Positions 7,212 through 42,951 of a stretch of 64,000 nucleotides of DNA are shown one piece after another. The DNA lies in assembly GCA_964625535.1 (NCBI GenBank), contig CAZVEX010000001.1, positions 64,295 to 128,294 on the forward strand, given 5' to 3'. This stretch comes from an uncultured Gammaproteobacteria bacterium (GTDB taxonomy: Bacteria; Patescibacteriota; Microgenomatia; Daviesbacterales; UBA10151). Under the pieces are notes generated by a model that saw only the letters and a list, made by a program, of their open reading frames with translations, did not search any database and had not been told where the DNA came from. Each line of letters starts with the position of its first letter. Position 1 is the stretch's first letter. A program made the position numbers and the translations under genes.

Positions 7212-8459
7212 ATGCCAGTGAATAAAAAAGAGGTTATTAAGCTAGAAGTTTGCCGGGTGTGTGAAAGTAGAAATTTATTATTATTTCTTCAACTCGGGCC
7301 TACCCCTGTACCAAATGGATTTTTAAAAGCCCATCACCGTCACCGTGCAGAAAAATTCTATCCTCTGGATGTTTGTTTTTGCAAAAACTGCGGATTGGTA
7401 CAGTTGGCCCATGTAGTATCCCCTAAAGTTATGTTTAAAAATTATGTCTATATTCCTTCAACTTCCGAGACCATGCTTACTCATTTTGCTGCTTTAGCAA
7501 GGCAAGCAATTAAAAAATTAAATACTGAAGAGGGGGATCTGGTTTTGGATATCGGTTCAAACGATGGCACGCTTCTTAATTCCTTTAAAGCGCAAAAAAT
7601 GAGGATATTGGGGGTTGATCCTGCAGAGAACTTGGCCAAAAAAGCTAATCAGGACGGAGTTCAAACTATTTGCGCATTATTTACTAAAGAACTGGCTAAA
7701 GAAATACGTAAAAAAAATAAAGAAGCTAAAATTATTACTGCTACGAATGTGGTAGCTCATGTACATGATTTGGATAATTTCCTGGAAGGAATAAAAATTT
7801 TACTTTCAGATGATGGATTATTTATAAGTGAATTTCCCTATCTTCTAGATCTTCTTGAAAAGGTTGAGTTCGATACCATTTACCAGGAACATCTATCATA
7901 CTTTTCAATTTATCCCTTTGAAAAACTTCTTGTAAAACATGGCCTAACTTTAATTGATGTGCAAAGGGTTCCTGTCCATGGTGGTTCGGTGAGAGTATTT
8001 GTTAGCAAAAAACCCAGCAGTGTTAGCAGAAGAGTTAAAAAAATATTGCAACTTGAGAAAAAACGAGAGATCTTAAGTTCCCAGACATATTTAAAATTTA
8101 GGAAACAAGTGGATAGGGTAAGGCATGAATTAGTACAGCTTCTTTGGGGTCTGCGACTAAAAAATAAAAAGATTGTGGGTTACGGGGCATCCGCCAAAGG
8201 AAATATCATACTAAATTATTGCCGGATTGGTCCGGAAACGCTGGATTATATAGTGGACTCCATACCGTACAAGCAGGGAAAATATACCCCGGGGATGCAT
8301 ATTCCAATATATCCGGAGGCCAAGTTGTTGGAAGATATGCCGGATTATACGCTGCTTTTGGCATGGAATTTTGCAGACGAGATTATCAAAAAACAAGCCG
8401 AGTATCGCAAAAAGGGGGGAAAATTTATTCTGGCTATTCCAAAACTCGCAATTGTTTAG
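7212..8459 (+). CDS. SAM-dependent methyltransferase with N-terminal zinc ribbon and C-methyltransferase-type C-terminal domain (NDP-hexose C-methyltransferase/TylCIII-like architecture)
   Basis: CRVCES ... CKNCGLVQ Cys4 ribbon; SAM motif I LVLDIGSNDGTLL; long C-terminal domain typical of the sugar C-methyltransferase family. Confidence 0.65.
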   Translation: MPVNKKEVIKLEVCRVCESRNLLLFLQLGPTPVPNGFLKAHHRHRAEKFYPLDVCFCKNCGLVQLAHVVSPKVMFKNYVYIPSTSETMLTHFAALARQAIKKLNTEEGDLVLDIGSNDGTLLNSFKAQKMRILGVDPAENLAKKANQDGVQTICALFTKELAKEIRKKNKEAKIITATNVVAHVHDLDNFLEGIKILLSDDGLFISEFPYLLDLLEKVEFDTIYQEHLSYFSIYPFEKLLVKHGLTLIDVQRVPVHGGSVRVFVSKKPSSVSRRVKKILQLEKKREILSSQTYLKFRKQVDRVRHELVQLLWGLRLKNKKIVGYGASAKGNIILNYCRIGPETLDYIVDSIPYKQGKYTPGMHIPIYPEAKLLEDMPDYTLLLAWNFADEIIKKQAEYRKKGGKFILAIPKLAIV

Positions 8460-9318
8460 CCAGAATTTCAACAGTTTCCTCCCATTTTAAAAATTTTAAA
8501 TTAAGTATTTTTTGCGTTTTTTCCACTTTAAGTCCGCCGTATTGAGGGTATCTAATAGGACTATCTTTTAGAAAACCTTCAATGCTAATTGGTTTTACAG
8601 CATTTTTAATGCCTCTTGCTTTTTCTATTAGATAATTTGCTAATTTATAGGGAGTGAAAATATTAACGCTGGAAGTATGAAAAATTCCGGTTGATCTTTT
8701 TGCCAAAAGAGCTTTCAAAGTTTCCGTAACCTCATTAATATAAGTGAGTGTTAAATACTGATCGTTAAACATAGGATAAAGTTTTCCCGTATCGTAAAGC
8801 TTAAGAATTTTGCGGACATAATCCATTTTTGGGGCATATTTGGCTCTTGAGGGATTGGAAATTCGCAAAATTGAGGCATTTTTTAAATTATTCATGACCA
8901 GTTTTTCCGCTTCTTTTTTAGTCCAGCCATACCATGATAGAAAATCGGGGTTTTCTTCCGGTGAATCGTCTTCTGAATATGGTCCCGGATTTTCCTTTCT
9001 TCCGGAAAAAACTACATCTGTAGAAATAGAAATAAAATAAGTATCGGGATGTACTGCTCGAATCAGATTAGCGGTTCCTTCTACATTTACGATCCAACAG
9101 GGAGCATTTTTGTTGTTCCGTTGCTCCTCCGCCGCTGTTACATCCGTAAAAGCGGCAAAATGGATGATCACTTCCGGGGTATGCAATTTGAAAAAAATTT
9201 CTATTGATTTTTTATCGGTAATATCTAATTCGTTTACGGTGGGAGATAAGACATCTGGATAATTCTCAATGAAATGAGAACCAACTAAACCATTGCCGCC
9301 GGTGACTAATATTTTCAT
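8434..9318 (-). CDS. RmlD-like NAD(P)H-dependent nucleotide-4-keto-sugar reductase (dTDP-4-dehydrorhamnose reductase family)
   Basis: MKILVTGGNGLVGSHFIE; Y-x3-K in YGWTKKEAE; 294 aa; 4-nt overlap with downstream GT2 on same strand. Confidence 0.7.
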   Translation of the reverse strand: MKILVTGGNGLVGSHFIENYPDVLSPTVNELDITDKKSIEIFFKLHTPEVIIHFAAFTDVTAAEEQRNNKNAPCWIVNVEGTANLIRAVHPDTYFISISTDVVFSGRKENPGPYSEDDSPEENPDFLSWYGWTKKEAEKLVMNNLKNASILRISNPSRAKYAPKMDYVRKILKLYDTGKLYPMFNDQYLTLTYINEVTETLKALLAKRSTGIFHTSSVNIFTPYKLANYLIEKARGIKNAVKPISIEGFLKDSPIRYPQYGGLKVEKTQKILNLKFLKWEETVEILAKQLRVLE

Positions 9319-10049
9319 AGAAAAAGATCTGTCTTAAATCCTAATCTGGCTAAAATAAAAAGCCCTAGCACTTTAAATGTACCCAGGGAATATTTAATGC
9401 TGTTTTTCAGACTTGCCCCTCTTTTTTTGCCTGTATAACTAGTCTCAACCGGCACTTGAGCTATCCTGATTTTATGATAAGCTGCTTGGGCAATCAATTC
9501 AAAACTGAATAAATAATTATTCGAGTTCACTAAATAGTTTACCCTTTTAAGCATTTTTTTTGTGTAAACCCGAAATCCCTGATGGAAATCATCTAAGTTT
9601 ACACGCAGTATCATTTTATCGATAAGATTTAAAATTCTAATCGGAACCCATTTCCAAAAATACATGCCAGATTTTAACGGATTATCTGAAGTTCTGAAAC
9701 GGTTGCCCAAAATAAATTCTGAACCCGCTTCTATTTCTTTCAAAGCCCCGGGGATAGCTGAAGACTTATATTCGCCGTCCGGGTGAATATCTATAATTAT
9801 ATCTGCTCCGTCTTCAAGCGCTAATTTTAGGGCTCTTTTCATATTGCCGCCATAACCCAAATTGACCGAGTTACGATATGATTTGATTCCAAGTTTTTTT
9901 GCCAGTTTAAAAGTATTGTCATGTGAGGCATCATCGACTAAGATTATTTCATCAACTAAATTTTTGGGAAAATCACGATAAAATTTTTCCAGAGTTTGGG
10001 AAGCATTAAAGGCTAAAAAAATCGTAATAATCTTTGTCCGTTTTTTCAT
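9315..10049 (-). CDS. GT2 glycosyltransferase, DPM1-like polyprenyl-phosphate sugar synthase type
   Basis: IITIFLAFNASQTL ... EIILVDDASHDNTFKLAKKLG ... ADIIIDIHPDGEY; 244 aa. Confidence 0.7.
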   Translation of the reverse strand: MKKRTKIITIFLAFNASQTLEKFYRDFPKNLVDEIILVDDASHDNTFKLAKKLGIKSYRNSVNLGYGGNMKRALKLALEDGADIIIDIHPDGEYKSSAIPGALKEIEAGSEFILGNRFRTSDNPLKSGMYFWKWVPIRILNLIDKMILRVNLDDFHQGFRVYTKKMLKRVNYLVNSNNYLFSFELIAQAAYHKIRIAQVPVETSYTGKKRGASLKNSIKYSLGTFKVLGLFILARLGFKTDLFL

Positions 10050-10103
10050 ATGACATTATTGGTAAACATTATCACCAAAATAAAAATTTGGCAAGCCAAG
10101 ATG

Positions 10104-10997
10104 TTAATAATTTTTCTCTTTCTTATTTTTGGCAATAATTAATTCAATGGGGGACTGATTAATCAAATACAAAAAAATCTGCCAAAGAAACACAATCATA
10201 AATATTGGTGAGGCAATCATTAAGTAAAGCAGGGAAATATTTTTTTTAAATAAGGCTGAAGTATTAATTTTTAAAACTGCCAAAATACTGGCTACAAAAC
10301 CACCTAAAGAGTATTCAGGGGCTATGACACTTTGGCAAGAGAGTATTTTAAGATTATTATTTTTAAGTACTTTAATAAGTCCTCTTATCGTAAGATGAGT
10401 TAAATGTCTAGGGGGGTCCAGATGAAACCAATATTTTGAAAATATTTTTGATTCTAAACTGTTATATCTAGGAAATTCAATCATAACAAAACCGTTTTTA
10501 TTTAGAAGCGAGCTTGCTTTTTTAATATATTCTGCAGAATTTGAAATATGCTCCAGACTTTCCCAAAAAACCACGGCATCAAATTTTTGTTTTGTTTGCC
10601 ATTTAATAAAATCCTTTTTAATGACATCGGGGTTTTTAATTTCAGCACCCGGGACGTCTAAATTAATTACCTCAAATTGATCGGGTAAAGATCTACCGAA
10701 TATCCCTTCGCCAGAGCCTACATCCAAAATTTTCCCTGCACGTAAGTATTTTTTTACCCATTTTTTTCTACGGGCTTGGAATAATTGATATGACATTTCT
10801 TTTAATATTCCGGTTATGCCGGGACTTTCCCAATAAATATCAGAGTAATATTTTCCAATATTTTTAGGTACAGGATAGGTGAATCCTAGAAAACAGTTGT
10901 TACAATAAAGAATATGGAATTTTTGGTTGAGTGTAGGTAGAGTTATGGTAGCATTTGTTTGACACTGTGGACATCGTAGTTTATTCTTTGATTTCAT
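10104..10997 (-). CDS. Class I SAM-dependent methyltransferase with N-terminal zinc ribbon
   Basis: Start placed at MKSKNKLRCPQCQ...CNNCF (ATG rc at 10995-10997; ORF-track TTG start at 11027 would collide with divergent gene); SAM motif ILDVGSGEGIFGRSL. Confidence 0.7.
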   Translation of the reverse strand: MKSKNKLRCPQCQTNATITLPTLNQKFHILYCNNCFLGFTYPVPKNIGKYYSDIYWESPGITGILKEMSYQLFQARRKKWVKKYLRAGKILDVGSGEGIFGRSLPDQFEVINLDVPGAEIKNPDVIKKDFIKWQTKQKFDAVVFWESLEHISNSAEYIKKASSLLNKNGFVMIEFPRYNSLESKIFSKYWFHLDPPRHLTHLTIRGLIKVLKNNNLKILSCQSVIAPEYSLGGFVASILAVLKINTSALFKKNISLLYLMIASPIFMIVFLWQIFLYLINQSPIELIIAKNKKEKNY

Positions 10998-11026
10998 CTC
11001 TTGGGTTTTATTATATAATAATTTCA

Positions 11027-12904
11027 ATGAATAAAACTATTAAATTAGTTCAAAATACGGTATTGCTTACATTTTTAATAGTTACGGTTGTTACCTCCAA
11101 CTATTATCTGTTAAGCGATTCGCTGACTTTGGGTTTTAAGCCGGATGATTGGATTCTATTTTTTTCCTATAAGGCTCTTGGCACGAATCCTCTTTCTCAA
11201 ATTGCATCGGTTTGGGCTGAAAGGGGAATATATACCACATACCAAGTTTACTATATGGGTTTTTTGGATAGCCTTTTTGGATTAAATTATTATTCATTTC
11301 ACTTTGTTAACTTAATTTTTAAGATTGTTGCCACCATAAGTTTATACCCTTTAATTCTAGTACTGTTTAAAAACAAGTTACTAGCAGTTTTATCCGTAAT
11401 TCTATTTGCTATTAGTCATTCAACAGTAGGTCCCTTAGAGCTTGTTGTTAAGGGGAGCGATTATTTAGCCATCATTTGGATGAATCTATTTTTGTTGATA
11501 TATTATCTAATCATTGTAAATAAGCTGGTTGGATTAAAATATCACTTTCTTTTATTTATTCTTTTTATTCTATCTCTGGCTTTTTCACCGATTAGGATTT
11601 TCCCGCTTGTAGTAATTCCACCACTGGTTGAAATATTTTTGATACTGAAACATTTTGATTGGGCTGTAATGAAAAAGTCTTTAATCAGACTGGCAGTTCT
11701 TTACTGGCCCTTTGTTATTTTAATTCTGTATTCCCCTATCTCTGTCTTGGGGGATGCGAAAGGCCTTTTTGGCGTATTTGATGCTGTTTTAAAAGGCAAT
11801 TGGTTTTATGTTTTAGCACCAATTTCCGGTATTGGTCATACTTTCATAGCCAATGATTTTTGGGGCAAAATTTTCGGTTTGTTAACAACAGATAAATTTA
11901 ACCATTATCTACTTTTCTTATCCGGGGGTCCCACAGTTATCTGTGGGGTATTGACTTTGTTACTATCCTGGTCGAGAATTTTAAAACAAAAGCTTCTTTT
12001 TTTTATCCTTACTTCATTATTGAATTTTATAGTTCAGATTTTATTTTTCTTTGTCGCGTTCCATCATTTGCAAGTACCTGCCATTGTGAAGGCAAATTAT
12101 GATCCTTCAAATCTTTATTCGGTAATTTTTGGAGGATATATATTGGTAGTTGGTTTTATGATATTTCTGAACTGGTTAAAATGGGATAGAGATAGAATTT
12201 TAGCCTCACTCTGGATTGGTTCAGCCTTTTTATTTATTTTTACTTTTCTGACATGGTTGTTTGCTCCTTTGGGAACAGGGTTTAACGCTACCAGCTACTA
12301 TCTGGTGGTTGCCTCAATCGGATCGTCTCTGATGGTTGCGGCCTTTTTAGTTTCGGTCTACGATAAACTTAAGTTTAGCAGGACAAAACTATTAGCTTTT
12401 CTGCCATTTTTAATTCTTATCTTGATTTTTGGAATGAGCAGTTATGAGATTCGCCAGAGGTTTTCCGGTCTAAATAAAGATGGCCGTGGCGCGGCTGGAC
12501 AGATTATAATGCAAGAAGAGGCAAGACGGGTTTTGAAAGACTACAAGGTGGGAGATTTTATTCTGGTTTATTTTGATACTTCGGATATTGGCGGTAATGG
12601 GTCATTTTATTCAGAAGGATTTTTGACAAGCTTCCCTTTTTTTATGCATTTTCGTAATAACAGAATAGCTGACGGTTGCATTGGAGTAATTTTCGAAGAT
12701 AGTAACATGGTAGAATTAAGGAAATTGGTGCAAGATAAAAATGGAATAAAAGGATTTAATTATCAGGGTTTATGTGTAACGGAAGGAAAAAGCAGCTTAA
12801 GAACTTTATTTTTTACCCGGGATCACTTTTATGCATTCAAAATTAAAGATAGAAAACTGATTGATATTAAAGAAAGTGTTTTGAATCGGTTATATATTAA
12901 GTAA
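11027..12904 (+). CDS. Polytopic GT-C glycosyltransferase (PMT/ArnT, GT39/GT83-like), paralog 1
   Basis: Start at MNKTIK (ATG 11027) rather than 10955; >10 predicted TM helices; first extracytoplasmic loop carries DDW (LGFKPDDWILFFSYK) as in GT-C DE/DD catalytic loop; ~150-aa soluble C-terminal domain. Confidence 0.65.
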   Translation: MNKTIKLVQNTVLLTFLIVTVVTSNYYLLSDSLTLGFKPDDWILFFSYKALGTNPLSQIASVWAERGIYTTYQVYYMGFLDSLFGLNYYSFHFVNLIFKIVATISLYPLILVLFKNKLLAVLSVILFAISHSTVGPLELVVKGSDYLAIIWMNLFLLIYYLIIVNKLVGLKYHFLLFILFILSLAFSPIRIFPLVVIPPLVEIFLILKHFDWAVMKKSLIRLAVLYWPFVILILYSPISVLGDAKGLFGVFDAVLKGNWFYVLAPISGIGHTFIANDFWGKIFGLLTTDKFNHYLLFLSGGPTVICGVLTLLLSWSRILKQKLLFFILTSLLNFIVQILFFFVAFHHLQVPAIVKANYDPSNLYSVIFGGYILVVGFMIFLNWLKWDRDRILASLWIGSAFLFIFTFLTWLFAPLGTGFNATSYYLVVASIGSSLMVAAFLVSVYDKLKFSRTKLLAFLPFLILILIFGMSSYEIRQRFSGLNKDGRGAAGQIIMQEEARRVLKDYKVGDFILVYFDTSDIGGNGSFYSEGFLTSFPFFMHFRNNRIADGCIGVIFEDSNMVELRKLVQDKNGIKGFNYQGLCVTEGKSSLRTLFFTRDHFYAFKIKDRKLIDIKESVLNRLYIK

Positions 12905-12905
12905 A

Positions 12906-13652
12906 ATGATACATCATAAAAATAAAGGTTCTGAAGTTATAGTGGTAATTCCTGCATATAATTCGGAGAAAACAATTGAAAAAGTGTATAAAAGCATACC
13001 TCATGGGTTGGTCGATGAAGTAATTATAGTAGACGATGGATCTAAGGATAATACTGTTGTAGAGATAGAGCGTCTTGGTTTAGAACCAATCATCCATAAA
13101 AAAAATTTAGGGTATGGAGCAAATCAAAAAACTTTATATACTAATGCATTAAAAGCCGGGGCAAAATATGTAATTATGCTTCATCCGGATGATCAGTATG
13201 ACCCAAAAGATCTGCCAAAATTTATTGATGCTTTAAGAAATGGTAAAGGAGACCTAATTTTAGGATCCCGCTTTTTATCAAAAGGAGTTAATGAAACGCC
13301 GGGCTATAAATCAATTTCTTTAAAACTAATAGCAGTACTTTTTAATTTAATTTTAGGGTTACGTCTTTCAGAAGTTAATACTGGATACCGCGGTTATACT
13401 GCCAGATTACTAAAAACAATTCCTTTTTCAAAAAACGGCAACGGATATATTTTTGACCCGCAACTTATTATTCAAGCGGTTCATTTCGGTTTCAAAATTG
13501 CCGAAGTGCCGGTTTCCAAAAAATACAACAAAGAGGCAATCTCGCCCAATTTTTCAAAGTCTATTCATCATGGATTTGAGAATATGCAGCTTTTAATAGA
13601 ATATATTCTTCACCGTCTAAAATTGAAACAGGCTACTTTTTTAACAGCTTAA
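12906..13652 (+). CDS. GT2 glycosyltransferase, DPM1-like polyprenyl-phosphate sugar synthase type
   Basis: VIVVIPAYNSEKTIEKV ... EVIIVDDGSKDNT ... YVIMLHPDDQYDP; 248 aa; sandwiched between two GT-C paralogs. Confidence 0.75.
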   Translation: MIHHKNKGSEVIVVIPAYNSEKTIEKVYKSIPHGLVDEVIIVDDGSKDNTVVEIERLGLEPIIHKKNLGYGANQKTLYTNALKAGAKYVIMLHPDDQYDPKDLPKFIDALRNGKGDLILGSRFLSKGVNETPGYKSISLKLIAVLFNLILGLRLSEVNTGYRGYTARLLKTIPFSKNGNGYIFDPQLIIQAVHFGFKIAEVPVSKKYNKEAISPNFSKSIHHGFENMQLLIEYILHRLKLKQATFLTA

Positions 13653-13664
13653 TTTAATGCGAAT

Positions 13665-15554
13665 ATGAAAATGAAATTGTGGATATTTTTGCTCTTAATC
13701 GGTTTAGTTTTTTTTATCCAATTTACTCTCTTACAACCCATCATTCAATACAGATTATTTGTAGAAGATTGGACTCTGCTTACAGGTTATAAATATCTCT
13801 ATCCTAACCCCTTTTTAAGACTTGTGGATGTTTGGACGGGCAGCGGCGGCCTGCACACTACTGTCCAAATATACTATATCGGGATATTATCAGATTTTTT
13901 CGGATCTAATTACCAAGCATATCATATCGTAAATGTAATATTAAAAGGCATAGCTACCTTGACACTTTTTCCATTGGTATTGATTCTGTTTAGAAATAAA
14001 CTGTTAGCTTTTTTGACTACTACTTTCTACGCAATTAGCGCCGGCTCGGCAGGTCCTTTGATAATGGTAATTAAAGGTGGGGAGTATCTGGCGGTAGCAG
14101 CATTAAATGTATTCTTAATTGTTTATTATTATGCGATTTCTAAAAAGTCGGTTTTTCTTATCGCTATTTCATCTTTTTTATTTCTTCTTACTTTTCTTCT
14201 TTCCCCATCAAGAATGTTCCCAATTTTTTTTCTGGTTTTGCTGGTAGAAATATTTTGGTTAGTAAAGTCCAGAAGTCTTAAGAATTTAAAGTTTTCCCTA
14301 TTAAGGCTGGTATGTTTTTATATACCGGTTTTTTTGATTGCAAGATCTGCTCCTGTTTCTTCCTGCTGCCTGTTTGCTTCCCGTCCGCCCATTATTTTAA
14401 AAGAAATTCTTGATGGTAATTGGCATAATCTCCTTATTCCATTTGCCGGAATCGGTTATTCGCTTTTGACTACGGATTTTTGGAAATATTTTGGTCAAAT
14501 AGATTTTGCAACCTTCACTGATTTGGGGAATTACCTGCTTTTTCTTTTCAGGTCTTCTGTAATTTTCCTTTTTCTGACGATTATCATTTCAACAATAGTT
14601 TCCAAAAAGCCCGGTAAATTTTTCATTTTAGTTTTTGTCACAAATTTTATTCTGGATATTTTAATGTTTTTTGTAGCAAGTCACCATTTTTATATACCGG
14701 ACAAGCTTAGATCATTTATGGATCCTTCTTTCTACCTCATTACCAAATACCCGGCACTAGTGGCTATTTATATATTTACCGTATCTTTTTTTGCATTTTT
14801 AGAATGGAAAAAATCCGGAAGAAGCAAGCCCTTACTTATGGCCTTGTGGGTAGGCCCTGCTTTTTCGGTTGCTTTCTTATGGCCAACTTGGTTGGTTATA
14901 GGAACACTAATCGGTTATTATACTAGTGTTAGCTGGTACTTAATTATACCTCCAATAGGTCTTTCGTTATTTATATCTGCGATTCTAGTTTTGTTCTATG
15001 AGAAATTAAAATACAAAAGTTTGTCGAAGAGTATTGCCATATTAGTCATTTGTGCCATAATTTTCGTATTGTATAAAACAAGCGGGATGGAAATTACTAG
15101 AGCTTTTATGGCTATAAATTCGCAAAGAGTCAAGATAACCGATCAAGGATTGCTGCAGGATAAATTACTGGCAAAAATCGGCGACCGCTATAAAAGCGGA
15201 AACATTTTTGTCTATTTTGATATAGAAAATGATGTTAAATATTCTAAACAATATTATCAAGACGCACTGTCTTTAGATCATTTTGAATATTGGATGCATG
15301 TTAGAAGATCAGATGGTTTGGGTGGTTGCGTTTCCGGTATAAGCAATAAAGATGCTTTAAGGAAGACAGTTCAATCAATTGACGGGCAAGTTGAATTTGT
15401 TTACAAAGGGATTTGTATGGAGAAAGATAAGCAGGAAGTCCAGAAGTCTTACGATGCTATAGTTTATGATGTTAATGATTTCTACGCCTATAAATTAGAA
15501 AATGGGGAGTTTATAGATATTAAAGAACACACGCTTAAGGAGATAAACCCTTAA
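13665..15554 (+). CDS. Polytopic GT-C glycosyltransferase (PMT/ArnT-like), paralog 2
   Basis: Collinear with 11027..12904: LQPIIQYRLFVEDWTLLTGYKYLY (EDW loop motif), GGLHTTVQIYYIGILSDFFG, many TMs, soluble C-terminal domain ending FYAYKLENGEFIDIKEHTLKEI (compare FYAFKIKDRKLIDIKESVLNRL in paralog 1). Confidence 0.65.
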   Translation: MKMKLWIFLLLIGLVFFIQFTLLQPIIQYRLFVEDWTLLTGYKYLYPNPFLRLVDVWTGSGGLHTTVQIYYIGILSDFFGSNYQAYHIVNVILKGIATLTLFPLVLILFRNKLLAFLTTTFYAISAGSAGPLIMVIKGGEYLAVAALNVFLIVYYYAISKKSVFLIAISSFLFLLTFLLSPSRMFPIFFLVLLVEIFWLVKSRSLKNLKFSLLRLVCFYIPVFLIARSAPVSSCCLFASRPPIILKEILDGNWHNLLIPFAGIGYSLLTTDFWKYFGQIDFATFTDLGNYLLFLFRSSVIFLFLTIIISTIVSKKPGKFFILVFVTNFILDILMFFVASHHFYIPDKLRSFMDPSFYLITKYPALVAIYIFTVSFFAFLEWKKSGRSKPLLMALWVGPAFSVAFLWPTWLVIGTLIGYYTSVSWYLIIPPIGLSLFISAILVLFYEKLKYKSLSKSIAILVICAIIFVLYKTSGMEITRAFMAINSQRVKITDQGLLQDKLLAKIGDRYKSGNIFVYFDIENDVKYSKQYYQDALSLDHFEYWMHVRRSDGLGGCVSGISNKDALRKTVQSIDGQVEFVYKGICMEKDKQEVQKSYDAIVYDVNDFYAYKLENGEFIDIKEHTLKEINP

Positions 15555-16460
15555 TTATTTTCTTTGTAATTGCCGTTTAAACCTATCTAGCGCTTTTTCT
15601 ATGCCAGTAATATGGAATCCAAGAGACTCTATTTTTTTAGTACTTAACCAGGTATGTTGAGGCCTGGGGGCAATCCGTTTTTTGGATAAATTTAAAAATG
15701 ATATTGGTTTTATTAAAGTTGCGTCCAAGTTCATTATATGGGCAATTTTTTGAGCAAATTGAATAGGAGTTATATACTTTTGGGGAGAGTAATTTCCCGC
15801 CACATGGTAAATACCTGTTGCGCTACTTTCTAATAGAAATTTCAGAGCCTTTGCAATATCATCAACGCTTGTTGGTTTGATTTTTTGATCTTCTATTCCA
15901 AAATACGGCTCTTTATCTTTCAGTTTTTCAACAACTGCCCTGGCAATATCAAGTTTTCGTCTGTATACACCGCTGAAAGGATAGGAGATTCGAATGATTG
16001 AGAATTTTCCTCCGATTTGAATAATTCCCAGTTCACCTTCAGATTTGGTTATTGCATACCATGAATCTACCGGGTTAGGAGTATCTTCTTCAGTATAAGG
16101 ACTATCTTCCTTTTTTCCATTAAATACATAATCTGTTGAGATATGGTATAGAACCTTACCGGAAGATTTACAGGTTTCAGCTAGCCAAGTCGGCAAAAGA
16201 ACATTTATGGTATAAACTTCTCCGTCCCGGTCATTTTTTTCTTTTTCAGCTTCATCTACATTAGTATAGGCTGCAAAATTCAAAACAACACTGGCATCAG
16301 ATGATTGGACAGTTTTGGAAACTTCCTCTTTATTGGTTAGGTTTATCTTGATATCTGCATTATTTCTTCCAAGGGTAACAACTGAAAAATTGTTTTTAAC
16401 AAGCTCAATGAATCTTGAGCCGACCAAACCGGTAGAACCGGTAATTAGCAGTTTTTGCAT
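15555..16460 (-). CDS. RmlD-like nucleotide-4-keto-sugar reductase (second copy)
   Basis: MQKLLITGSTGLVGSRFIE; Y-x3-K in YAITKSEGE; 301 aa; abuts convergent GT-C gene with zero spacer. Confidence 0.7.
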   Translation of the reverse strand: MQKLLITGSTGLVGSRFIELVKNNFSVVTLGRNNADIKINLTNKEEVSKTVQSSDASVVLNFAAYTNVDEAEKEKNDRDGEVYTINVLLPTWLAETCKSSGKVLYHISTDYVFNGKKEDSPYTEEDTPNPVDSWYAITKSEGELGIIQIGGKFSIIRISYPFSGVYRRKLDIARAVVEKLKDKEPYFGIEDQKIKPTSVDDIAKALKFLLESSATGIYHVAGNYSPQKYITPIQFAQKIAHIMNLDATLIKPISFLNLSKKRIAPRPQHTWLSTKKIESLGFHITGIEKALDRFKRQLQRK

Positions 16461-16463
16461 ATT

Positions 16464-17633
16464 TTAGGAAGTGGCCTTTTTTATGGTATTGGCTACATAC
16501 TCCATGACCTCAACTGAAAGAGTCGGATGTACAGAGACCCAAAAGCTGCTGTGAAGCAATTGATCCGCATTGTTAAGTTTATCCCGGACTATCACATGGT
16601 CCAAAAAGGCAGGCTGGCGGGCAATATTCCCTGCCAAAATTGGCCGCCACTCAATGTTCGCTTTATCCAAAGCTTCCAAGACTTTTTTTCTTGGAATACC
16701 CTTTAAGGTAACAGGAAAAGTGTACCAGCAGACATCGGCCAGGGAATCAGCAACAGGTAAAACTATTCTATCTTCATATCTGGATAGTAATTTTTTTAGA
16801 ACTTGCGCATTTCTTTTCCTTGCCTTTTTAAATTCCTGTAACCTTCCAAGTTGTACCCTACCCATGGCTGCTTGCAGTTCCAGCGGTTTGAGGTTTGATC
16901 CCAGCTCGGAATATATATACCTTCTGTAATCGGCAGGGAAATCTCCCATCCCCTTTTTCCTATTTTCGAAATCTAAAATCCTTCCCCAATCCCTGATAGA
17001 AAGAACCCTGTCTGCTACATCGGAATTGTCGGTTAAGACTGCGCCTCCCTCTCCGGTTGATATGATATGAGCTGCATGGGTGGAGATAGCTGAAAATTCT
17101 CCAAAACTTCCCAGCATTTTTCCATCCCACATGCCGCCGAAACCGTCGCAATTATCCTCAATAATTTTTAGTTTGTTTTTCTTGGCAATTTTTAATATCT
17201 CATCCAGCTTACCTACTAGCCCTGCTGCATAGACAATAAAGATGGCAGAAGTTTTGTCGGTGATTGATTTTTCAACGGATTTTGGGGAGAGAAAATAATT
17301 CCCCAATTCTATATCGGCAACCACAGGTTTTAAACCGGAATTTATTAAAGATGCAATAGGGGTAGGAAATGAACAGGCGGGAACAATTACTTCCGACCCT
17401 TTTGATAACTGCAGTGCTCTTATTCCTAAATCCAGGGCCGAGGTACCCGAATTTGCTAAAATCGCCCTTTTTACCCCTTGGACTTTTGCCAGTTCCGACT
17501 CAAATAATTTTCCCTGTTCACTCAAACCCCACCAGTTTTTATCCAAAATTGCATCTATTGCCTTGCGTTCTTTTTTACCAAAAGCTACCCCGCCATATAA
17601 AACCCTGGTTTTTCCGGGGATAAATTTTTTCAT
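16464..17633 (-). CDS. DegT/DnrJ/EryC1-family PLP/PMP enzyme with His in place of the Schiff-base Lys: predicted sugar 3-dehydratase (ColD/E1-like) rather than aminotransferase
   Basis: Start placed at MKKFIPGKTRVLYGG (ATG rc 17631-17633); active-site stretch FSAISTHAAHIISTGEGGAV aligns to canonical SFHPVKNLGAFGDGGAV with K->H; immediately upstream of RmlD-like reductase. Confidence 0.6.
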   Translation of the reverse strand: MKKFIPGKTRVLYGGVAFGKKERKAIDAILDKNWWGLSEQGKLFESELAKVQGVKRAILANSGTSALDLGIRALQLSKGSEVIVPACSFPTPIASLINSGLKPVVADIELGNYFLSPKSVEKSITDKTSAIFIVYAAGLVGKLDEILKIAKKNKLKIIEDNCDGFGGMWDGKMLGSFGEFSAISTHAAHIISTGEGGAVLTDNSDVADRVLSIRDWGRILDFENRKKGMGDFPADYRRYIYSELGSNLKPLELQAAMGRVQLGRLQEFKKARKRNAQVLKKLLSRYEDRIVLPVADSLADVCWYTFPVTLKGIPRKKVLEALDKANIEWRPILAGNIARQPAFLDHVIVRDKLNNADQLLHSSFWVSVHPTLSVEVMEYVANTIKKATS

Positions 17634-17742
17634 TGTATTTTGCAGTTTAAGATGAGATTGTAAAAAAGTTTTTGTGAAAAAACAAGTATCTAAATTGATA
17701 GTGATTGACAATAATTTCTTTTAATTTAAAATTAAGAGATAA

Positions 17743-19662
17743 ATGCGATATTTTAAAAAACATTCCTTGAGCATTTGGATATTTTTTTTATGCGCAATTT
17801 TAGTATTTATTACTCAATTTACACTACTTCAATCTGTACTTCAGTATCGGTTATTTAATACCTCGGAGGATTGGGCGTATCTTATTTTATATCACTCCCT
17901 GGATTTAAATTTTTGGGATAAATTAGTTTATGTTTGGAAAACTTCCGGGCTGCACACATCAGCCCAAGTATTCCATATCGGGATTTTATCCGAGTTGTTA
18001 GGTTTTAATTATTCGGCTTATCAAGTGGTAAATGTAGTATTAAAAGCAATAGGGACGCTATCTTTTTTCCCGTTGATTTTGATCCTTTTTAAAAGCAGAA
18101 AGCTGGCATTTTTAGCAACTATTTTGTTTGGGATAAATTCTGCTACTGCCGGATCCTTTCTTTGGATTGTTAAGGGGAGTGAATACATAGGGATAATGTT
18201 GATGAACATTTTTCTTATTACTTACTACTTTGTAATCTTAAAAAATTCAAAAAAGCTTCTTTTTCTATCAAGCATTTTATTTTTATTAGCTTACTTGATG
18301 GCTCCGCCCAGGATGTTTCCACTGGTTTTACTGTTTCCTTTAATTGAAATTTATTGGCTACTTAAAACTCGTAAGATTCGCAATCTAAAATATTCAATCT
18401 TAAGAGGAGTATTTTATATCCTGCCTGTGATTTTAGTTTCCTTACCGGCTCCTGTTTCCCCGGGTTTTCCCTTTACCAAACAGCCGTTCGTTCTTTTAAA
18501 AGCAATACTCGACGGGAATTGGCATAATCTTATTGACCCATTCTCTAGTATAGGTTGGACACTTCTTACAAACGATTACTGGAAATTTTTAGGAAAGTTA
18601 GAATATGAAACTCTAACAAATTTAAAATTATATTTGACCTTTTTGTTTGATAGACCTGTCTTAATCTTCGGAATTTTAACAATGCTATTATCCCGTATTT
18701 TGTCGAATAAACCCCGGAAATTTTTTCTATTAGTTTTTGGTTTAAACTTTATGCTTGAAATTTTATTGTTTATATTAACCAGCCACCACCTTTATTTGCC
18801 GGAAAACCACATCAAGTCTTACCCGGGTCATTTTGTATTCACCAAATTTCCAGCTTTAGTTGGTTTTTATATATTTACGGTCGCTTTTGCCTGTTTTTTG
18901 GAATGGAGAAATGATAAAGAAAAAAGCAATCTATATATGGCTATGTGGGTTGGGGTGATATTTTCAGTAATTTTTCTTTGGCCAACATGGATAATAATGG
19001 GGCCATTAATCAATGATTATAGTAGTGTCCATTGGTATTTTGGTATACCGGCTGCGGGAACCACTCTTTTTTTAGCCGCAATATTGATCCTAATTTATGA
19101 TAAATTTAAACACAGAAGGTTATCCAGGGTATTTGCAGTACTCTTTATTTTGATAATAATAGTTGTTTTTTACCAATCTCATGGGACGGCAATTACCAAA
19201 CAATATATGGGTGTAAACCCCACAAAAGTAAGTTTGAAAGATCAACAAAAACTGCATGAGGAATTGATAATAAGCCTAGGAGATTCAGCAAAAAGCGGAG
19301 ATGTTTTGGTATACCTGGAAATTACTGAAGATGTTGTCAACTTAAGGAGGACACAAGAGTTTTATAAAGAAGCCTTGGTTGTAACAAAGTTTGGAGATTG
19401 GTTACACTTCAGAAGAAAAGAAACCGCCGGATGCATAGATGTTATCATTGATAAAAAGGTGCTTAAATCTGTTATTCAATTAAGGAATAATGAGAAAGGG
19501 TTTGCATACTACGGTAAATGTTTGGATAAAGAGAAGGGTATTTTGGTAAACAAAGAAAACCACCTCTATAAACTTGGTGACTTTTATGCATTACGAATAA
19601 AAAATGGTAACTTTATTAATATCAGAGACGAAATACTCGGAGAATTAAGGCTTAACCCCTGA
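17743..19662 (+). CDS. Polytopic GT-C glycosyltransferase (PMT/ArnT-like), paralog 3
   Basis: FTLLQSVLQYRLFNTSEDWAYLILYHS (EDW), SGLHTSAQVFHIGILSELLGFNYSAYQVVNVVLKAIGTLSFFPLILILFKSRKLAFLATILFGI collinear with paralogs 1-2; C-terminal soluble domain. Confidence 0.65.
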   Translation: MRYFKKHSLSIWIFFLCAILVFITQFTLLQSVLQYRLFNTSEDWAYLILYHSLDLNFWDKLVYVWKTSGLHTSAQVFHIGILSELLGFNYSAYQVVNVVLKAIGTLSFFPLILILFKSRKLAFLATILFGINSATAGSFLWIVKGSEYIGIMLMNIFLITYYFVILKNSKKLLFLSSILFLLAYLMAPPRMFPLVLLFPLIEIYWLLKTRKIRNLKYSILRGVFYILPVILVSLPAPVSPGFPFTKQPFVLLKAILDGNWHNLIDPFSSIGWTLLTNDYWKFLGKLEYETLTNLKLYLTFLFDRPVLIFGILTMLLSRILSNKPRKFFLLVFGLNFMLEILLFILTSHHLYLPENHIKSYPGHFVFTKFPALVGFYIFTVAFACFLEWRNDKEKSNLYMAMWVGVIFSVIFLWPTWIIMGPLINDYSSVHWYFGIPAAGTTLFLAAILILIYDKFKHRRLSRVFAVLFILIIIVVFYQSHGTAITKQYMGVNPTKVSLKDQQKLHEELIISLGDSAKSGDVLVYLEITEDVVNLRRTQEFYKEALVVTKFGDWLHFRRKETAGCIDVIIDKKVLKSVIQLRNNEKGFAYYGKCLDKEKGILVNKENHLYKLGDFYALRIKNGNFINIRDEILGELRLNP

Positions 19663-21414
19663 TTTTAATTGTTCCAGTTTATTTCTTGCCTCATTGGTGA
19701 TGTTTACCAGATTATCTTTTCCCTGCAAATAAAAGGCATAAACTCTATCAGGGGAGATTGGTTTTACCGGATATCCATAAGCGGATAAAGCCTTTCCGTC
19801 TGTAACAGCAGAAACTAACTGTCTGATGTCATCCATCGGCACAGGAAGACCCCCATCCTCCTCTCTTAGATTATAAAGTATTGCCATACGAGGTGGAAAT
19901 CCGAAGGTTATAACATCGTGGAGAATCCCTCCGTTGGTGCCATCCCCTTCAAAGTAAAAAATTATCGGCTCCTTACTTTTGCCAATTTCAGAAACATAGG
20001 GCATAGAAGACCAAATTTTTTTACTGATTTCCTGTCCGTGGCTATTTAAAAGACTGTTGATATACATTTTAGTTGCAATAATATGAATTACTAAAATTAT
20101 GCAAAGCGTTGCAAAAATGGCGATTTGTTGTTTTCTCTCTTTCCCCAAACTAATTATTGTTGCAAGTAATATGGATACACCTGCTGCAGATACGATTAAA
20201 TATCTGTAAGTAGTGGGGAAGATTGATGTTGGCACCCACCACCAGGCAAAAAAGAATGAAGTGATGGACCAGGAGGCTCCTAGAAAGAGAGCTTGAGATA
20301 TGTATTTTTCCTTGAAGTATTTTACTGCCAGAAAGCCAATCAGAATTAGGGTATATCCTCCAATCAGTAATGAAAAAATCTGGTTTGTATTATTGAAGAA
20401 ATTTAGATTTCCTTTATAAATCAATATAATCAGCGTGCTCCACAATCCTAAGGAAAATAACGTATAACAGAATAATTTAGATGTGAATATGCTTGCATTT
20501 TTCATTATAAAAAATACAAAAAGGGAGAAAATCGCAAATGAGGAGATGAGGAAAGGAAGAAGTTGTCTCAAGGCATTAATCTGTCCTTGTGGTCCTATTA
20601 AATCAGGGATCAGCATGCTTCCAAACATAACAATGGGATAAAAAAGAAAATCAAATCTTCCCTGCTGCAAAAGCATAGATATTGTTTGTATCCCTAAATT
20701 AAATCTCTCAGCTATTTCCTGCGGAGGACCCTGTGATTGACCCGTGTATCTGATAATTAGAAATATTGCCAAAAAGACGGAAAATCTAATGACAGATTTT
20801 TTAATTGTTTTAAAGTTTCTGTTTTGAATAACCCAAAAGACCTCAAGTAAAAAGATAAATGGTAGCGATCCATGCATCCTGATGGGAGTTGTTACATAGG
20901 CAAAATAGTAAAGGATTGCTGAAATAATTAAAGAAAAAGGTTTACTCTCCCCTCTTGCTTTAAAGAAGAAATACAAGCACAAATTAAGAAGAGCTACAGT
21001 TATATAGGAGGGCATATTAAAAACCCAGTTAGTAGCATCCAGTCCAATGGTTGTGATTGAGAAAAACCCAACTGCAAAAACAGATGCAATTTTACTCTTT
21101 GTGAGGTAGAAAACTAAAGGATAAAATGAGAATGCAGCCGTGATCCTTAATACATAAGAGGTTAAATAATACCAAGACGATTCAAAACCGAAGATTTTCT
21201 GCATGATTCCCATTAAAATATCCTGGGCCCCGTATGGCGTTAGATAGTAGGTTAGATGATTCCAGGCGCCCGGAGACCTTGGTCCTACATGTTGAAAATA
21301 TCTAAAAAATGCCAACCAGTCATCGCCCATAAGCGCAAGATTGAACGAGGGGTAGAGAGCAAAAAGACTAATAATTATTGAGAGTAAAATAGCAAGAATG
21401 TAGCCTTTTTTCAT
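19645..21414 (-). CDS. Polytopic GT-C glycosyltransferase (PMT/ArnT-like), divergent paralog 4
   Basis: Start placed at MKKGYILAILL (ATG rc 21412-21414, TAATG overlap with upstream gene stop); FNLALMGDDWLAFFRYFQ (DDW loop), many TMs, soluble C-terminal domain; 18-bp overlap with convergent paralog 3. Confidence 0.6.
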   Translation of the reverse strand: MKKGYILAILLSIIISLFALYPSFNLALMGDDWLAFFRYFQHVGPRSPGAWNHLTYYLTPYGAQDILMGIMQKIFGFESSWYYLTSYVLRITAAFSFYPLVFYLTKSKIASVFAVGFFSITTIGLDATNWVFNMPSYITVALLNLCLYFFFKARGESKPFSLIISAILYYFAYVTTPIRMHGSLPFIFLLEVFWVIQNRNFKTIKKSVIRFSVFLAIFLIIRYTGQSQGPPQEIAERFNLGIQTISMLLQQGRFDFLFYPIVMFGSMLIPDLIGPQGQINALRQLLPFLISSFAIFSLFVFFIMKNASIFTSKLFCYTLFSLGLWSTLIILIYKGNLNFFNNTNQIFSLLIGGYTLILIGFLAVKYFKEKYISQALFLGASWSITSFFFAWWWVPTSIFPTTYRYLIVSAAGVSILLATIISLGKERKQQIAIFATLCIILVIHIIATKMYINSLLNSHGQEISKKIWSSMPYVSEIGKSKEPIIFYFEGDGTNGGILHDVITFGFPPRMAILYNLREEDGGLPVPMDDIRQLVSAVTDGKALSAYGYPVKPISPDRVYAFYLQGKDNLVNITNEARNKLEQLKSGVKP

Positions 21415-23711
21415 TATGTTTTCCAAAGTTTGATGCCATTGCCGAGACCTGTCCATAACAGTTTTGCGTCGCAATTGCAAAATGTTTTTGGATCGGCGTT
21501 TTCACCTAAAACCAGATAGTCATAATGATTAGGGAGATTCAAGCGGAGAAAATAATCAACGTCTATCCTACCATTATAAAATGCAGCTGTGGGAATATTA
21601 TAAACTTCTCGGTCATTTAGAATCAGTCTTAAAGCGCGGAACATATGTTCCGGAATACTGGTGCGGTAGTCTATAAAAAATGTGCCTGTTTTCGGTGCAA
21701 ATTTGTCAAACTCCTCCAGTGTGCCTTCTAAATTTTTTGCTTCATTTAAGTATTTATCAGTTACTTTAAATACGCCTTCTGTCCTGTCTTGGCTTAAGAA
21801 TTTAGGCTGGAAATATTCACTGTTTAATATATCTGCTCTTCTTTTATCTGTTAAACCAGCAAGATATATGTCATTGATAATTAAATAATTTGCTTTGAGT
21901 ATTCTTAGCGAAAGGGGATTTAATGTGTAATACAAGTCAGCATAGGTAGGGCCCATATCGAAAATATCATACACCCGGGGTTTTGGCGCCCATAAAGGGG
22001 TTAAAGCACCGATTTCTGTAACTAGATTTAGATTTGAAGACGGGATGGGATTGGAATCGGTTAGAGCCAGCACTCTTTCTTGAACAGGGAGATTGTTCTT
22101 TACCCACTCAAAAGCCGGCCGCTCTGTTTTTGGCAGTATTTTATACCAATAATCTTGAGGTCTTGGGAAAAGTTTTGCAAAAGAAGGCAGGATAGAAATT
22201 ATGAATATCCAACTCAAAAAAATTTTAGGGATTAAATATTTTTTTTGTGGTGAACTAAACCACCAGTTGGAAATAAAAAAAGCAATGCCTAGCCCTGAAA
22301 AATAATAAGCTAATGCCAAAAAGCGGTTTCCGTTGGCGCCTAGATAATCTTTAGGGACTATGCCATGATATGCGATTAACGCTGTCGCGGATGAAATAAA
22401 AAGTAACCACATCATAGCGCGAAGGGATTTGTTTTTAAAAGTGATATAAATACAAATAGATAAAAGTATGCTTAAAGACCAAAAAATTCCCGGATGGAAC
22501 CACTGCAGAGGATAATAATGCGGCTGATCAGGGATTATTTTGGAGGATTGCTGTCTTGTCTGGTAGGTACTTTCTTGCTTGCCAGAGTCTGGTCCGTTTT
22601 TGGGAAAAATTATTACACTCGACTCGCCCTTATTCAATCCAACAATAGTTTCCGTAATGATTCCTCCCTGAAGGCTAATTATTAAGGCCGTCAAAGTTAC
22701 AAATAGAAACCATTTAATAATTGCTTTCCGGAATATGGTAATAAGAAGCATTAAAAGACAGGCAGGTAGGATTACTAAGAGTACAACTTCATCTGTTAGG
22801 GCTGTTGCTGAAAAAACGGCCAATAGGACAAGCGAGATAATAAATAAGTTATTGACAGGACGGATAATAATAGGAAGCAAGCCTATTACAAAAGATATAG
22901 ATAGCAGCCTGTGTATAAAATAAATTAAGACATCAAGATAATGTGGAGTGCCGTAAATTTCCTGCGCATTGTAAATAGTCGGTTGTTGGCTAAGCCATTT
23001 TAAAAAGCCTTCTTCCATATTAGGTAAACCAATTTGAGCAGGCCAGGCAACCATAAAGTTACCCATGGAGATAATCCCCGTTAACGCGGGTAGTGAAATA
23101 ACTAAAAGCGATAAATAGCCTTTTTTTACAGGTATCAGCCAGCTAAGTATTTGACTAATGGCAAGAAGTACAAAAAAAGAAATAAGGGAATGGGTAAAAT
23201 AATAGGGAGCATCTGTTAGTGCTCTCGTAGCCCCCAGAAATTCTCCGGCTCCCAAATGATAATACATTAAATAATCAGGCTGGAAAGGCGTATGAGGAGG
23301 GTAGTCGCCTCTTATGAAAAGCGAGGCTATAGAATAATGATTAACCGAATCTCCTCCGTTTGACTGTGCGTGCGCCGTAATAACGTATAAAAATATAGAC
23401 CAAAGCAGAAGTGAAACAATCCATAGCGTCAGTTGTGTGCCTTTAGGGAATTCTAATTTTGGAACATTCTTAAAATATTTAACCGCAGCAGCAATAACAA
23501 CTTCAGTTATTAAAGCAATAATTATGCCTGAAGGACCCTTGAGGAAATGAGCAAACAGGTTTATTAAAAAAATATATATTGCGATACCGATGATTGCACC
23601 GGCCGGTATTAAGATTTGGGCTCTGCTATCCGTTGTTGCCCTGCGGATTATGGTTATACCGGACCAGAAAAGAACAAGAAAGAAGATTAAAACCTTTATA
23701 TATATGAACAC
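21414..23711 (-). CDS. 765-aa polytopic membrane protein, distinct family (GT-C-like/YfhO-like?), co-transcribed with GT-C paralog 4
   Basis: ~14 hydrophobic segments plus ~230-aa C-terminal soluble domain; loop motif NGGDSVNHYSIASLFIRGDYPPHTPFQPDY; no catalytic motif recognised by eye. Confidence 0.4.
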   Translation of the reverse strand: MFIYIKVLIFFLVLFWSGITIIRRATTDSRAQILIPAGAIIGIAIYIFLINLFAHFLKGPSGIIIALITEVVIAAAVKYFKNVPKLEFPKGTQLTLWIVSLLLWSIFLYVITAHAQSNGGDSVNHYSIASLFIRGDYPPHTPFQPDYLMYYHLGAGEFLGATRALTDAPYYFTHSLISFFVLLAISQILSWLIPVKKGYLSLLVISLPALTGIISMGNFMVAWPAQIGLPNMEEGFLKWLSQQPTIYNAQEIYGTPHYLDVLIYFIHRLLSISFVIGLLPIIIRPVNNLFIISLVLLAVFSATALTDEVVLLVILPACLLMLLITIFRKAIIKWFLFVTLTALIISLQGGIITETIVGLNKGESSVIIFPKNGPDSGKQESTYQTRQQSSKIIPDQPHYYPLQWFHPGIFWSLSILLSICIYITFKNKSLRAMMWLLFISSATALIAYHGIVPKDYLGANGNRFLALAYYFSGLGIAFFISNWWFSSPQKKYLIPKIFLSWIFIISILPSFAKLFPRPQDYWYKILPKTERPAFEWVKNNLPVQERVLALTDSNPIPSSNLNLVTEIGALTPLWAPKPRVYDIFDMGPTYADLYYTLNPLSLRILKANYLIINDIYLAGLTDKRRADILNSEYFQPKFLSQDRTEGVFKVTDKYLNEAKNLEGTLEEFDKFAPKTGTFFIDYRTSIPEHMFRALRLILNDREVYNIPTAAFYNGRIDVDYFLRLNLPNHYDYLVLGENADPKTFCNCDAKLLWTGLGNGIKLWKT

Positions 23712-42502: not shown

Positions 42503-42951
42503 TCGATGGAGTAAAAATCAAAAATTTAAAGAAAATCCCTGATGAAAGAGGAACTGTAATGCATATGCTAAGAAGTGATGATCCTGAATTTAAAAAATTT
42601 GGGGAAATTTATTTTACCACAGCTTACCCGCAAGTGATAAAAGGTTGGCATCTTCATTCCAAAATGACTTTAAACTATGTGGTAATTTCAGGAATGATAA
42701 AACTTGTTTTATACGATGACAGAAAGGAGTCAAAAACTAAAGGGGAAATAATGGAGTTATTTTTAGGTGAAGATAATTATTCCTTGGTCACAATACCACC
42801 TCTTGTTTGGAATGGATTTAAGGTTATTGGAGGTAAAACCGCAATTTTGGCAAATTGTCCGGATTTACCGCATGATCCTAAAGAGATGAAGAGATTGGAT
42901 CCATTAAAGAATAGCGTTATTCCCTATAATTGGGGCATTAAGCTAAAATAA
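42499..42951 (+). CDS. Small cupin nucleotide-sugar epimerase/ketoisomerase (RmlC/FdtA-like)
   Basis: 150 aa; GEIYFTTAYPQVIKGWHLHSKMTLNYVVISGMIKLVLYDD cupin core; 4-nt overlap with upstream SDR. Confidence 0.55.
   Translation: MIDGVKIKNLKKIPDERGTVMHMLRSDDPEFKKFGEIYFTTAYPQVIKGWHLHSKMTLNYVVISGMIKLVLYDDRKESKTKGEIMELFLGEDNYSLVTIPPLVWNGFKVIGGKTAILANCPDLPHDPKEMKRLDPLKNSVIPYNWGIKLK

Follow-up and report, generated by a model that had tools for sequence, protein, structure and literature searches.

Two sequence-novel families of GT-C-fold membrane proteins, probable lipid-linked-sugar transferases, in a glycan-biosynthesis locus of Candidatus Daviesbacteria

A stretch of 64,000 nucleotides (contig CAZVEX010000001.1; hereafter the window) was analyzed from Candidatus Daviesbacteria, a groundwater bacterium with a tiny genome that belongs to the Candidate Phyla Radiation (CPR, or Patescibacteria). 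The window holds a very large glycan-biosynthesis locus, within which lies a cluster of five open reading frames (ORFs) for membrane proteins, here named A to E and assigned to two families, X and Y. A first-pass annotation had regarded these five as tandem PMT/ArnT-like glycosyltransferases (GTs) of the GT-C class, supplied by small DPM1-like enzymes of family GT2. ORFs A-E and the small GT2 genes were all found where that annotation had placed them, and are as follows (each GT2 is named below by its first coordinate, and TM stands for transmembrane).

A, 11027-12904, + strand: 625 aa, family X; 13-TM GT-C-fold protein in which DDW follows TM1 and the C-terminal domain is soluble.
B, 13665-15554, + strand: 629 aa, family X; the paralog that was modelled.
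C, 17743-19662, + strand: 639 aa, family X; closest paralog of B.
D, 19645-21414, - strand: 589 aa, family X; divergent member of an old subfamily.
E, 21414-23711, - strand: 765 aa, family Y; a distinct GT-C-fold protein with 14 predicted TM helices.
GT2 12906, 12906-13652, + strand: DPM1/PpgS-like GT2 (PF00535, E 5e-22), between A and B in the same operon.
GT2 9315, 9315-10049, - strand: second DPM1/PpgS-like GT2 (PF00535, E 1e-15).
GT2 2686, 2686-3405, - strand: third small GT2, of AglJ/Dol-P-hexose-transferase type (PF00535, E 1e-26).

Proteins A to E are all polytopic, and four of them are paralogs. A, B and C share 34-46% identity in pairwise BLASTP alignments that span the whole proteins (E 1e-92 to 0), with 37% for A against B (E 2e-102) and 46% across 636 aa for C against B. 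D is about 23% identical to each of the three (E 1e-16 to 1e-20), and a profile of family X (alignment A1) scored 661 bits on A and 407 bits on D. In all four an acidic-acidic-Trp motif directly follows TM1 (A DDW40, B EDW34, C EDW42, D DDW31). By contrast, E showed no relation to A-D by BLASTP (E > 0.4), hidden Markov model (HMM) or profile-profile comparison; it is devoid of this motif and carries an invariant GGD121 loop after TM4, preceded by four TM helices. The proposal of five collinear paralogs thus applies to A-D, whereas E is unrelated in sequence and has another layout and motif. Likewise, the soluble C-terminal domain of about 150 aa ascribed to all five was recovered in the model of B as an alpha/beta domain of about 145 aa (residues 485-629), whereas that of E spans about 250 aa. 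Two other origins for E were considered and ruled out at the sequence level: a divergent fifth paralog (by BLASTP, HMM and profile-profile comparison of X with Y) and a relative of the AftD-like genes present farther along the window (by profile-profile comparison of Y with these). Families X, Y and AftD-like showed no relation to one another in any of the three pairwise profile comparisons. The start codon of D overlaps the stop codon of E (TAATG, 21412-21416); together with a 4-nt overlap (9315-9318) between GT2 9315 and an RmlD-like gene, this arrangement indicates translational coupling in a very compact locus, in which divergent gene pairs are spaced by only about 30-70 nt. A TTG at 10955, upstream of the start of A, is a possible alternative start.

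Searches of A-E against Pfam and NCBIfam yielded zero family matches at E <= 0.1, neither to PMT_2, PMT or ArnT nor to GT66/STT3, and sequence searches of the Protein Data Bank (PDB) with single proteins and with family profiles were empty or returned noise. For 28 divergent relatives, Pfam gave one sub-threshold match to PMT_2 (18 bits, cutoff 26) and one to DUF7657. No WWDxG or W[WYF]D motif was found in A-E. By sequence, the five proteins therefore fall outside the PMT_2/PMT (GT39), ArnT-type (GT83) and STT3/PglB/AglB (GT66) families, and 'PMT/ArnT-like' did not stand as a statement of family membership, since the relevant HMMs matched none of the five proteins and 27 of the 28 relatives gave nothing. 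The first-pass annotation had named two findings that together would count against it, absence of GT-C/PMT_2 matches and unrelated predicted folds, and the former is what was observed. A-E share about 90% identity with 'hypothetical proteins' encoded in metagenome-assembled genomes of Candidatus Daviesbacteria, and their named relatives are all called 'hypothetical protein', none with a precomputed Pfam domain. Within the literature library searched, nothing pertinent to GT-C enzymes of CPR, Patescibacteria or Daviesbacteria and no description of families X or Y came up. Both families thus appear to be novel in sequence and undescribed, as does their expansion, whereas the mechanism would be of a known kind.

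AlphaFold2 predicted the structures of B and E with confidence (pLDDT 88.3 and 86.4, respectively; pTM 0.90 for both). Compared with solved GT-C structures, the B model gave figures of 18.8 for STT3B, 18.4 for Pmt4, 18.1 for AftA, 18.0 for ALG12, 17.5 for AglB, 16.4 for Pmt2, 15.6 for PglB, 14.5 for ArnT and 14.4 for AftB, with ALG9/3/6, AftD, DPY19, PimE and EmbA further down the match list. Foldseek, independent of this comparison, ranked PglB, STT3, DPY19, ALG12 and ArnT at the top for B. The E model matched the same set of enzymes with lower figures (ALG12 14.0, AftA 13.8, ArnT 12.7, Pmt2 12.5, STT3B 12.1) and showed a separate match to the C-terminal globular domain of AglB, most likely through its own C-terminal domain. 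With both models resembling GT-C enzymes, ArnT and Pmt2 among them, the GT-C assignment is right at the level of the predicted fold for X as well as for Y.

Conserved residues were analyzed in alignments of 38 family X (A1) and 24 family Y (A2) sequences. The B model has 13 TM helices and a helical first external loop (residues 24-86). Residues invariant in family X are D35, W36, P103, R183, E195, G251, P259, Y425 and Y517 (B numbering); in 28 divergent members, down to 17% identity, the [DE]-D pair (28/28), R183, P259, Y425 and Y517 are kept. In family Y, D121 is invariant in the 24 sequences and is located after TM4, not TM1; E has 14 helices and its N-terminus is predicted outside. Topology was deduced from the helices of the models and from the positive-inside charge bias. 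In the loops assigned to the cytoplasmic side, the fraction of Lys plus Arg was 0.326 for family X (38 sequences) and 0.274 for family Y; in those assigned to the outside it was 0.071 and 0.069, respectively. Given this strong positive-inside signal, the [D/E]DW loop, the loops bearing R183 and Y425 and the C-terminal domain of family X are predicted to lie outside; the extracytoplasmic location that had been proposed for the acidic loop is in this way predicted for both families, and so is that of the C-terminal domain. An outward-facing catalytic Asp just after the first TM helix is the documented arrangement of GT-C enzymes (PMC11127046), and in GT136, Emb and AftD the external C-terminal domain functions as a carbohydrate-binding module (PMC11127046). 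A conserved acidic residue at the start of a predicted external loop is present in X (D35) and in Y (D121), where it may be catalytic. Since no HMM of an enzymatic family matches A-E, it was also considered that they could be non-catalytic GT-C-fold proteins (scaffolds, lipid-binding subunits or transport-related proteins), like PIG-U and GAB1 in the glycosylphosphatidylinositol transamidase. The invariant acidic residue at the canonical catalytic position after TM1, as placed by sequence, the invariant Arg and Tyr in external loops, the nature of the best structural matches, which are active transferases, and the fusion to and operon with putative donor-making GT2s described below all argue for an enzymatic role and make a non-catalytic one extremely improbable.

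The three small GT2s (239-248 aa) belong to GT2 in general terms through PF00535. GT2 12906 and GT2 9315 are paralogs with 33% identity, whose best PDB match was the Dol-P-Man synthase of P. furiosus (5mlz; E 5e-12 and 3e-5, respectively). The best NCBIfam match of GT2 12906 was PpgS (87 bits), a model for a polyprenyl-P-GalNAc synthase, followed by AglJ and Dol-P-hexose transferase; GT2 9315 matched PpgS with 71 bits, and GT2 2686 matched AglJ with 115 bits and Dol-P-hexose transferase with 78 bits. All these scores are below the equivalog cutoffs (the highest are 87, 71 and 115 bits, where cutoffs of 370 and 325 apply), so that the three proteins are best described as relatives of the PpgS, AglJ and Dol-P-hexose transferase families, not as equivalogs or orthologs. 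The resemblance to polyprenyl-phosphate-sugar synthases that had been noted for them was borne out by these matches. Their direct adjacency to the GT-C genes was confirmed for GT2 12906, which lies 1 nt from A and 12 nt from B, but not for the other two: one methyltransferase gene separates GT2 9315 from A, and GT2 2686 lies about 7.6 kb from A and the array. A putative polyprenyl-phosphate-sugar synthase is therefore encoded with the GT-C-fold proteins, in the operon (12906) and nearby (9315).

This association extends beyond the window. Other Daviesbacteria contigs contain family X arrays of 4-6 copies per locus beside DPM1-like GT2 genes, with an E-type gene also present, and in five of five independent related loci a DPM1-like GT2 lies within a few kb of family members. 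Orthologs of GT2 9315 (70-71% identity) adjoin family X genes in loci L003 and L007, and an ortholog of GT2 2686 (80% identity) adjoins an E-type gene in L003, where the pair formed by GT2 and RmlD-like gene (9315/8434 type) is also kept; the methyltransferase and GT2 pair recurs in L008. A family X profile search of 1.84 billion metagenome cluster representatives retrieved 1437 members at E <= 1e-3. In P0143 (864 aa), one of these members, a DPM1-like GT2 (residues 12-172; 28% identical to 12906) and a family X domain of full length (residues 243-855; 25% identical to A, LDDW intact) are naturally fused; the protein was recovered from two independent metagenomic contigs. Its GT2 part, cytoplasmic and N-terminal, agrees with the N-in topology of family X. 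Combined, conserved synteny and fusion reinforce the likely coupling between GT2 and GT-C.

These data also bear on the possibility that X and Y operate like oligosaccharyltransferases (PglB, AglB, STT3) or polymerases, transferring oligosaccharides en bloc from polyprenyl diphosphate, with the adjacent GT2s as ordinary chain-building Leloir enzymes. Foldseek does place PglB and STT3 first, in near full-length alignments, and GT66 proteins share with those studied here 13 TM helices followed by an external globular C-terminal domain. However, neither a WWDxG-type motif (0/5 proteins) nor a GT66/STT3 HMM match is present, the fused and adjacent GT2s belong to the DPM-synthase/PpgS type, whose products are single sugars linked to a monophosphate, and 4-6 paralogous oligosaccharyltransferases per genome would be unprecedented, whereas several GT-Cs dependent on polyprenyl-P-sugars are normal within one pathway. 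En bloc transfer is accordingly a very unlikely mode of action.

In the neighbor-joining tree of family X, the A-type, B/C-type and D-type subfamilies each include orthologs from other genomes (from three other loci for the D-type), and the subfamilies predate the divergence of those Daviesbacteria genomes. B and C form one clade, from a more recent duplication. The expansion is thus old, maintained and still ongoing. A scan of the genome collection with a narrower alignment found 3 loci, and the range comprised records labelled Daviesbacteria apart from L007 (CAYMUB010000023.1). This contig, labelled 'uncultured Gammaproteobacteria' and with 33% GC, harbors family X genes together with a GT2 that shares 70% identity with GT2 9315 of the window; it is most likely a mis-binned CPR contig. 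A further homology search with a divergent profile added only three weak outliers (TPR-containing proteins named 'O-mannosyl-transferase' and one discoidin-domain protein).

Families X (A-D) and Y (E) are, with a probability that we put at roughly 70%, GT-C-fold extracytoplasmic glycosyltransferases that depend on polyprenyl-phosphate sugars supplied by DPM1/PpgS-like GT2s. The central idea of the first-pass annotation is in this sense supported by fold and context. A lipid-monophosphate donor is suggested by the operon with, and the fusion to, a DPM-synthase-like GT2. In the proposed pathway, a cytoplasmic DegT aminotransferase, RmlD-like reductases, a C-methyltransferase, a dehydrogenase and epimerases would generate unusual nucleotide sugars; on the inner side of the membrane, GT2s 12906 and 9315, and perhaps 2686, would attach single sugars to polyprenyl phosphate; and some flippase would carry the lipid-linked sugar across. 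Each GT-C paralog would then pass the sugar to an extracytoplasmic acceptor, either a cell-wall glycopolymer or a surface protein, with the invariant D35 of family X or the GGD121 loop of E providing the general base. R183 and Y425 may be among the residues that bind the phosphate, acceptor binding may be aided by the external C-terminal domain, and paralogs probably differ by donor, acceptor position or linkage.

Several observations weigh against this interpretation. No sequence model of any characterized GT-C family in Pfam, NCBIfam or the PDB detects A-E, and the enzymatic function is for this reason deduced from fold and motif only, just as the topology is deduced only from model helices and charge bias. 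The GT2 scores are far under the curated equivalog cutoffs (for PpgS, 87 versus 370 bits), and a GT2 of such size could instead act on a soluble or lipid-PP-linked acceptor. The top structural matches include oligosaccharyltransferases, which use PP-linked donors. No flippase of GtrA, SMR, MATE or Wzx type was found in the window by hydropathy and HMMs, although one may be encoded elsewhere in the genome, and the scan of part of the ORFs of the window, which was not aimed specifically at any of these families, brought no polyprenyl-phosphate priming transferase to light.

Other genes of the cluster and of the rest of the window include the following.

7212-8459: sugar C-methyltransferase.
8434-9318, - strand: RmlD-like reductase (PF04321, E 2e-45), downstream of GT2 9315 in the same operon, with the 4-nt overlap.
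10104-11027, - strand: S-adenosylmethionine (SAM)-dependent methyltransferase (PF13489, E 7e-19) with two C-terminal hydrophobic helices (2 TM segments), divergent from A and upstream of GT2 9315.
15555-16460, - strand: RmlD-like NAD(P)-dependent sugar reductase (PF04321, E 6e-55), donor-sugar biosynthesis.
16464-17711, - strand: DegT/DnrJ/EryC1-type sugar aminotransferase (PF01041, E 6e-77), donor-sugar biosynthesis.
36649-38238: nucleotidyltransferase/kinase fusion.
39768-44182: CDP-hexose pathway.
44880-46646: carbamoyltransferase.

A dehydrogenase of UDP-Glc/GDP-Man type and epimerases are also found nearby. The window as a whole constitutes one glycan locus, with at least four GT4 genes, at least eight GT2 genes, three DegT aminotransferases and several SAM methyltransferases. 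The sugar-nucleotide genes suggest that amino, deoxy and C-methyl sugars are used, and nothing points specifically to mannose or to the protein O-mannosylation that had been evoked for the cluster.

This gene content bears on whether X and Y could be protein O-glycosyltransferases in the PMT sense, with Ser/Thr of secreted, S-layer or pilus proteins, instead of a glycopolymer, receiving the sugar of polyprenyl-P-sugar. Similarities to PMT/PMT_2 (GT39) and ArnT (GT83) exist, namely an acidic motif in the first external loop and a probable polyprenyl-P-monosaccharide donor; a distant family member (P0197) has a weak PMT_2 match (E 0.003), and a broad profile weakly reaches P0213 (E 8e-6), which bears the JGI (Joint Genome Institute) name 'protein O-mannosyl-transferase'. 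The fold does not discriminate between acceptors, and genes for polymer export or priming went unnoticed among the scanned window ORFs (Wzx/Wzy and ABC exporter included), where no targeted search was made, which leaves proteins as possible acceptors. Unlike PMT and ArnT, however, A-E failed the HMM test of membership in five of five cases, as did 27 of 28 relatives, show a structure-based identity of 6-12%, lack a MIR domain and have another C-terminal domain. Positive evidence for a PMT function is nil, and the locus is rich in deoxy-, amino- and C-methyl-sugar enzymes and in GT2/GT4 enzymes of the Leloir kind that usually accompany polysaccharide synthesis. Protein O-glycosylation of this kind is therefore considered unlikely, and extracytoplasmic transfer from polyprenyl-phosphate sugars, whichever the acceptor, is retained as the preferred interpretation.

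Three-component systems, such as Gtr (GtrB/GtrA/GtrX), ArnC/ArnEF/ArnT and CsbB/GtcA/YfhO, consist of a polyprenyl-P-sugar synthase, a flippase and a GT-C enzyme. The cluster resembles them in that a small cytoplasmic GT2 of polyprenyl-P-sugar-synthase type adjoins a GT-C-fold gene, and in the conserved Asp after TM1 of family X. Unlike them, it has no recognized flippase gene in the window, contains 4-6 GT-C paralogs per locus instead of one, and has relatives in which GT2 and GT-C are fused. The GT136 system of Citrobacter is also a three-component system for extracytoplasmic glycosylation, and its ORF12 has a C-terminal carbohydrate-binding module (PMC11127046). The proteins of the cluster similarly have an external C-terminal domain after the TM domain, but show no sequence similarity to the Pfam or NCBIfam models of GT39, GT83, GT136 or YfhO.

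The window contains further genes that recall GT-C enzymes. Three very large polytopic proteins form an AftD-like paralog group with a GGGD/GGEE motif after TM1, two of which pass the cutoff of Pfam GT-C_AftD (PF11847). Identity is 40% between the second and the third, and 26% between the first and either of the others:

51276-53993, + strand: 905 aa.
58270-61710, + strand: 1146 aa (protein H).
62044-64000, + strand: more than 652 aa, running off the end of the window.

Between the last two lies an ORF of 110 aa (61715-62047, + strand) with about four hydrophobic helices and no Pfam or NCBIfam match; in the size class of GtrA/SMR flippases, it is the only small multi-TM ORF and the only flippase candidate in the window. 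Another polytopic protein (31627-33132, - strand, 501 aa) has a sub-threshold PMT_2 match (E 7e-4, 20.3 bits versus a cutoff of 26.1) and 'GVDVW' after TM1, and is probably yet another GT-C. Counting A-E, the 31627 ORF and the AftD-like group, the 64 kb may contain up to nine GT-C-type genes, two assigned by fold, two by HMM and the rest by inference.

Assembly of mycobacterial arabinan and mannan involves PpgS/Rv3779, Ppm1, and the decaprenylphosphoryl-arabinose (DPA)-dependent Emb, AftA-D, PimE and MptA/B enzymes. As in the mycobacterial cell wall, a polymer would here be built outside the membrane by many different GT-C enzymes of one organism that draw on a small number of polyprenyl-P-sugar donors. 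GT2s 12906 and 9315 match PpgS best, and the presence in the same window of AftD-type GT-C genes past the PF11847 cutoff strengthens the parallel with the multi-GT-C arrangement of mycobacteria. Differences are that the genome, that of a CPR bacterium, is small, that neither DprE1/E2 nor a phosphoribosyl-pyrophosphate (PRPP)-dependent synthase was seen in the window, and that X and Y bear no sequence relation to the Emb/Aft families. It can be tentatively envisaged, as a rather doubtful extension of these data, that Daviesbacteria, and perhaps other CPR bacteria, build a major envelope glycan largely outside the membrane by means of a mycobacterium-like line of up to nine GT-C-type enzymes from at least three families mutually unrelated in sequence (X, Y and AftD-like), supplied with few polyprenyl-P donors that carry unusual amino, deoxy or C-methyl sugars. 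If so, X and Y would be the founding members of new CAZy GT families, and the lineage-wide 4-6-fold expansion would represent a diversification of surface glycans that could matter for an episymbiotic lifestyle.

The envelopes of CPR bacteria are almost uncharacterized and their genomes are of roughly 1 Mb. One such organism here devotes at least 64 kb to glycan synthesis, of which about 10 kb corresponds to two GT-C-fold families annotated as 'hypothetical protein' in all annotation sources. Their recognition as probable lipid-linked-sugar transferases provides a testable entry to the surface glycobiology of CPR bacteria, including host attachment and phage receptors, and would add new sequence families to the GT-C class. 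If confirmed, the mechanism would be a known one, and the advance would lie in annotation and scope, without a new principle.

Two additional observations concern the surroundings of family X. DUF5667 occurs as a small separate protein beside family X genes in the window (5883-6431, + strand), in L003 (6536-7075) and in L008 (3746-4192). One family X member (P0176, residues 659-732) bears it as a C-terminal fusion, and in the 1146-aa AftD-like protein H it is embedded (residues 674-738); it may be an accessory extracytoplasmic domain. In another Daviesbacteria locus (L001, GCA_016184225.1), the family X array is interrupted at 7350-9870 by an RGP-family gene (PF03214), a small GT2 and an unassigned 227-aa protein; PF03214 is of the UDP-arabinopyranose-mutase type, which hints that arabinofuranose may be among the sugars that lipid carriers donate in that lineage.

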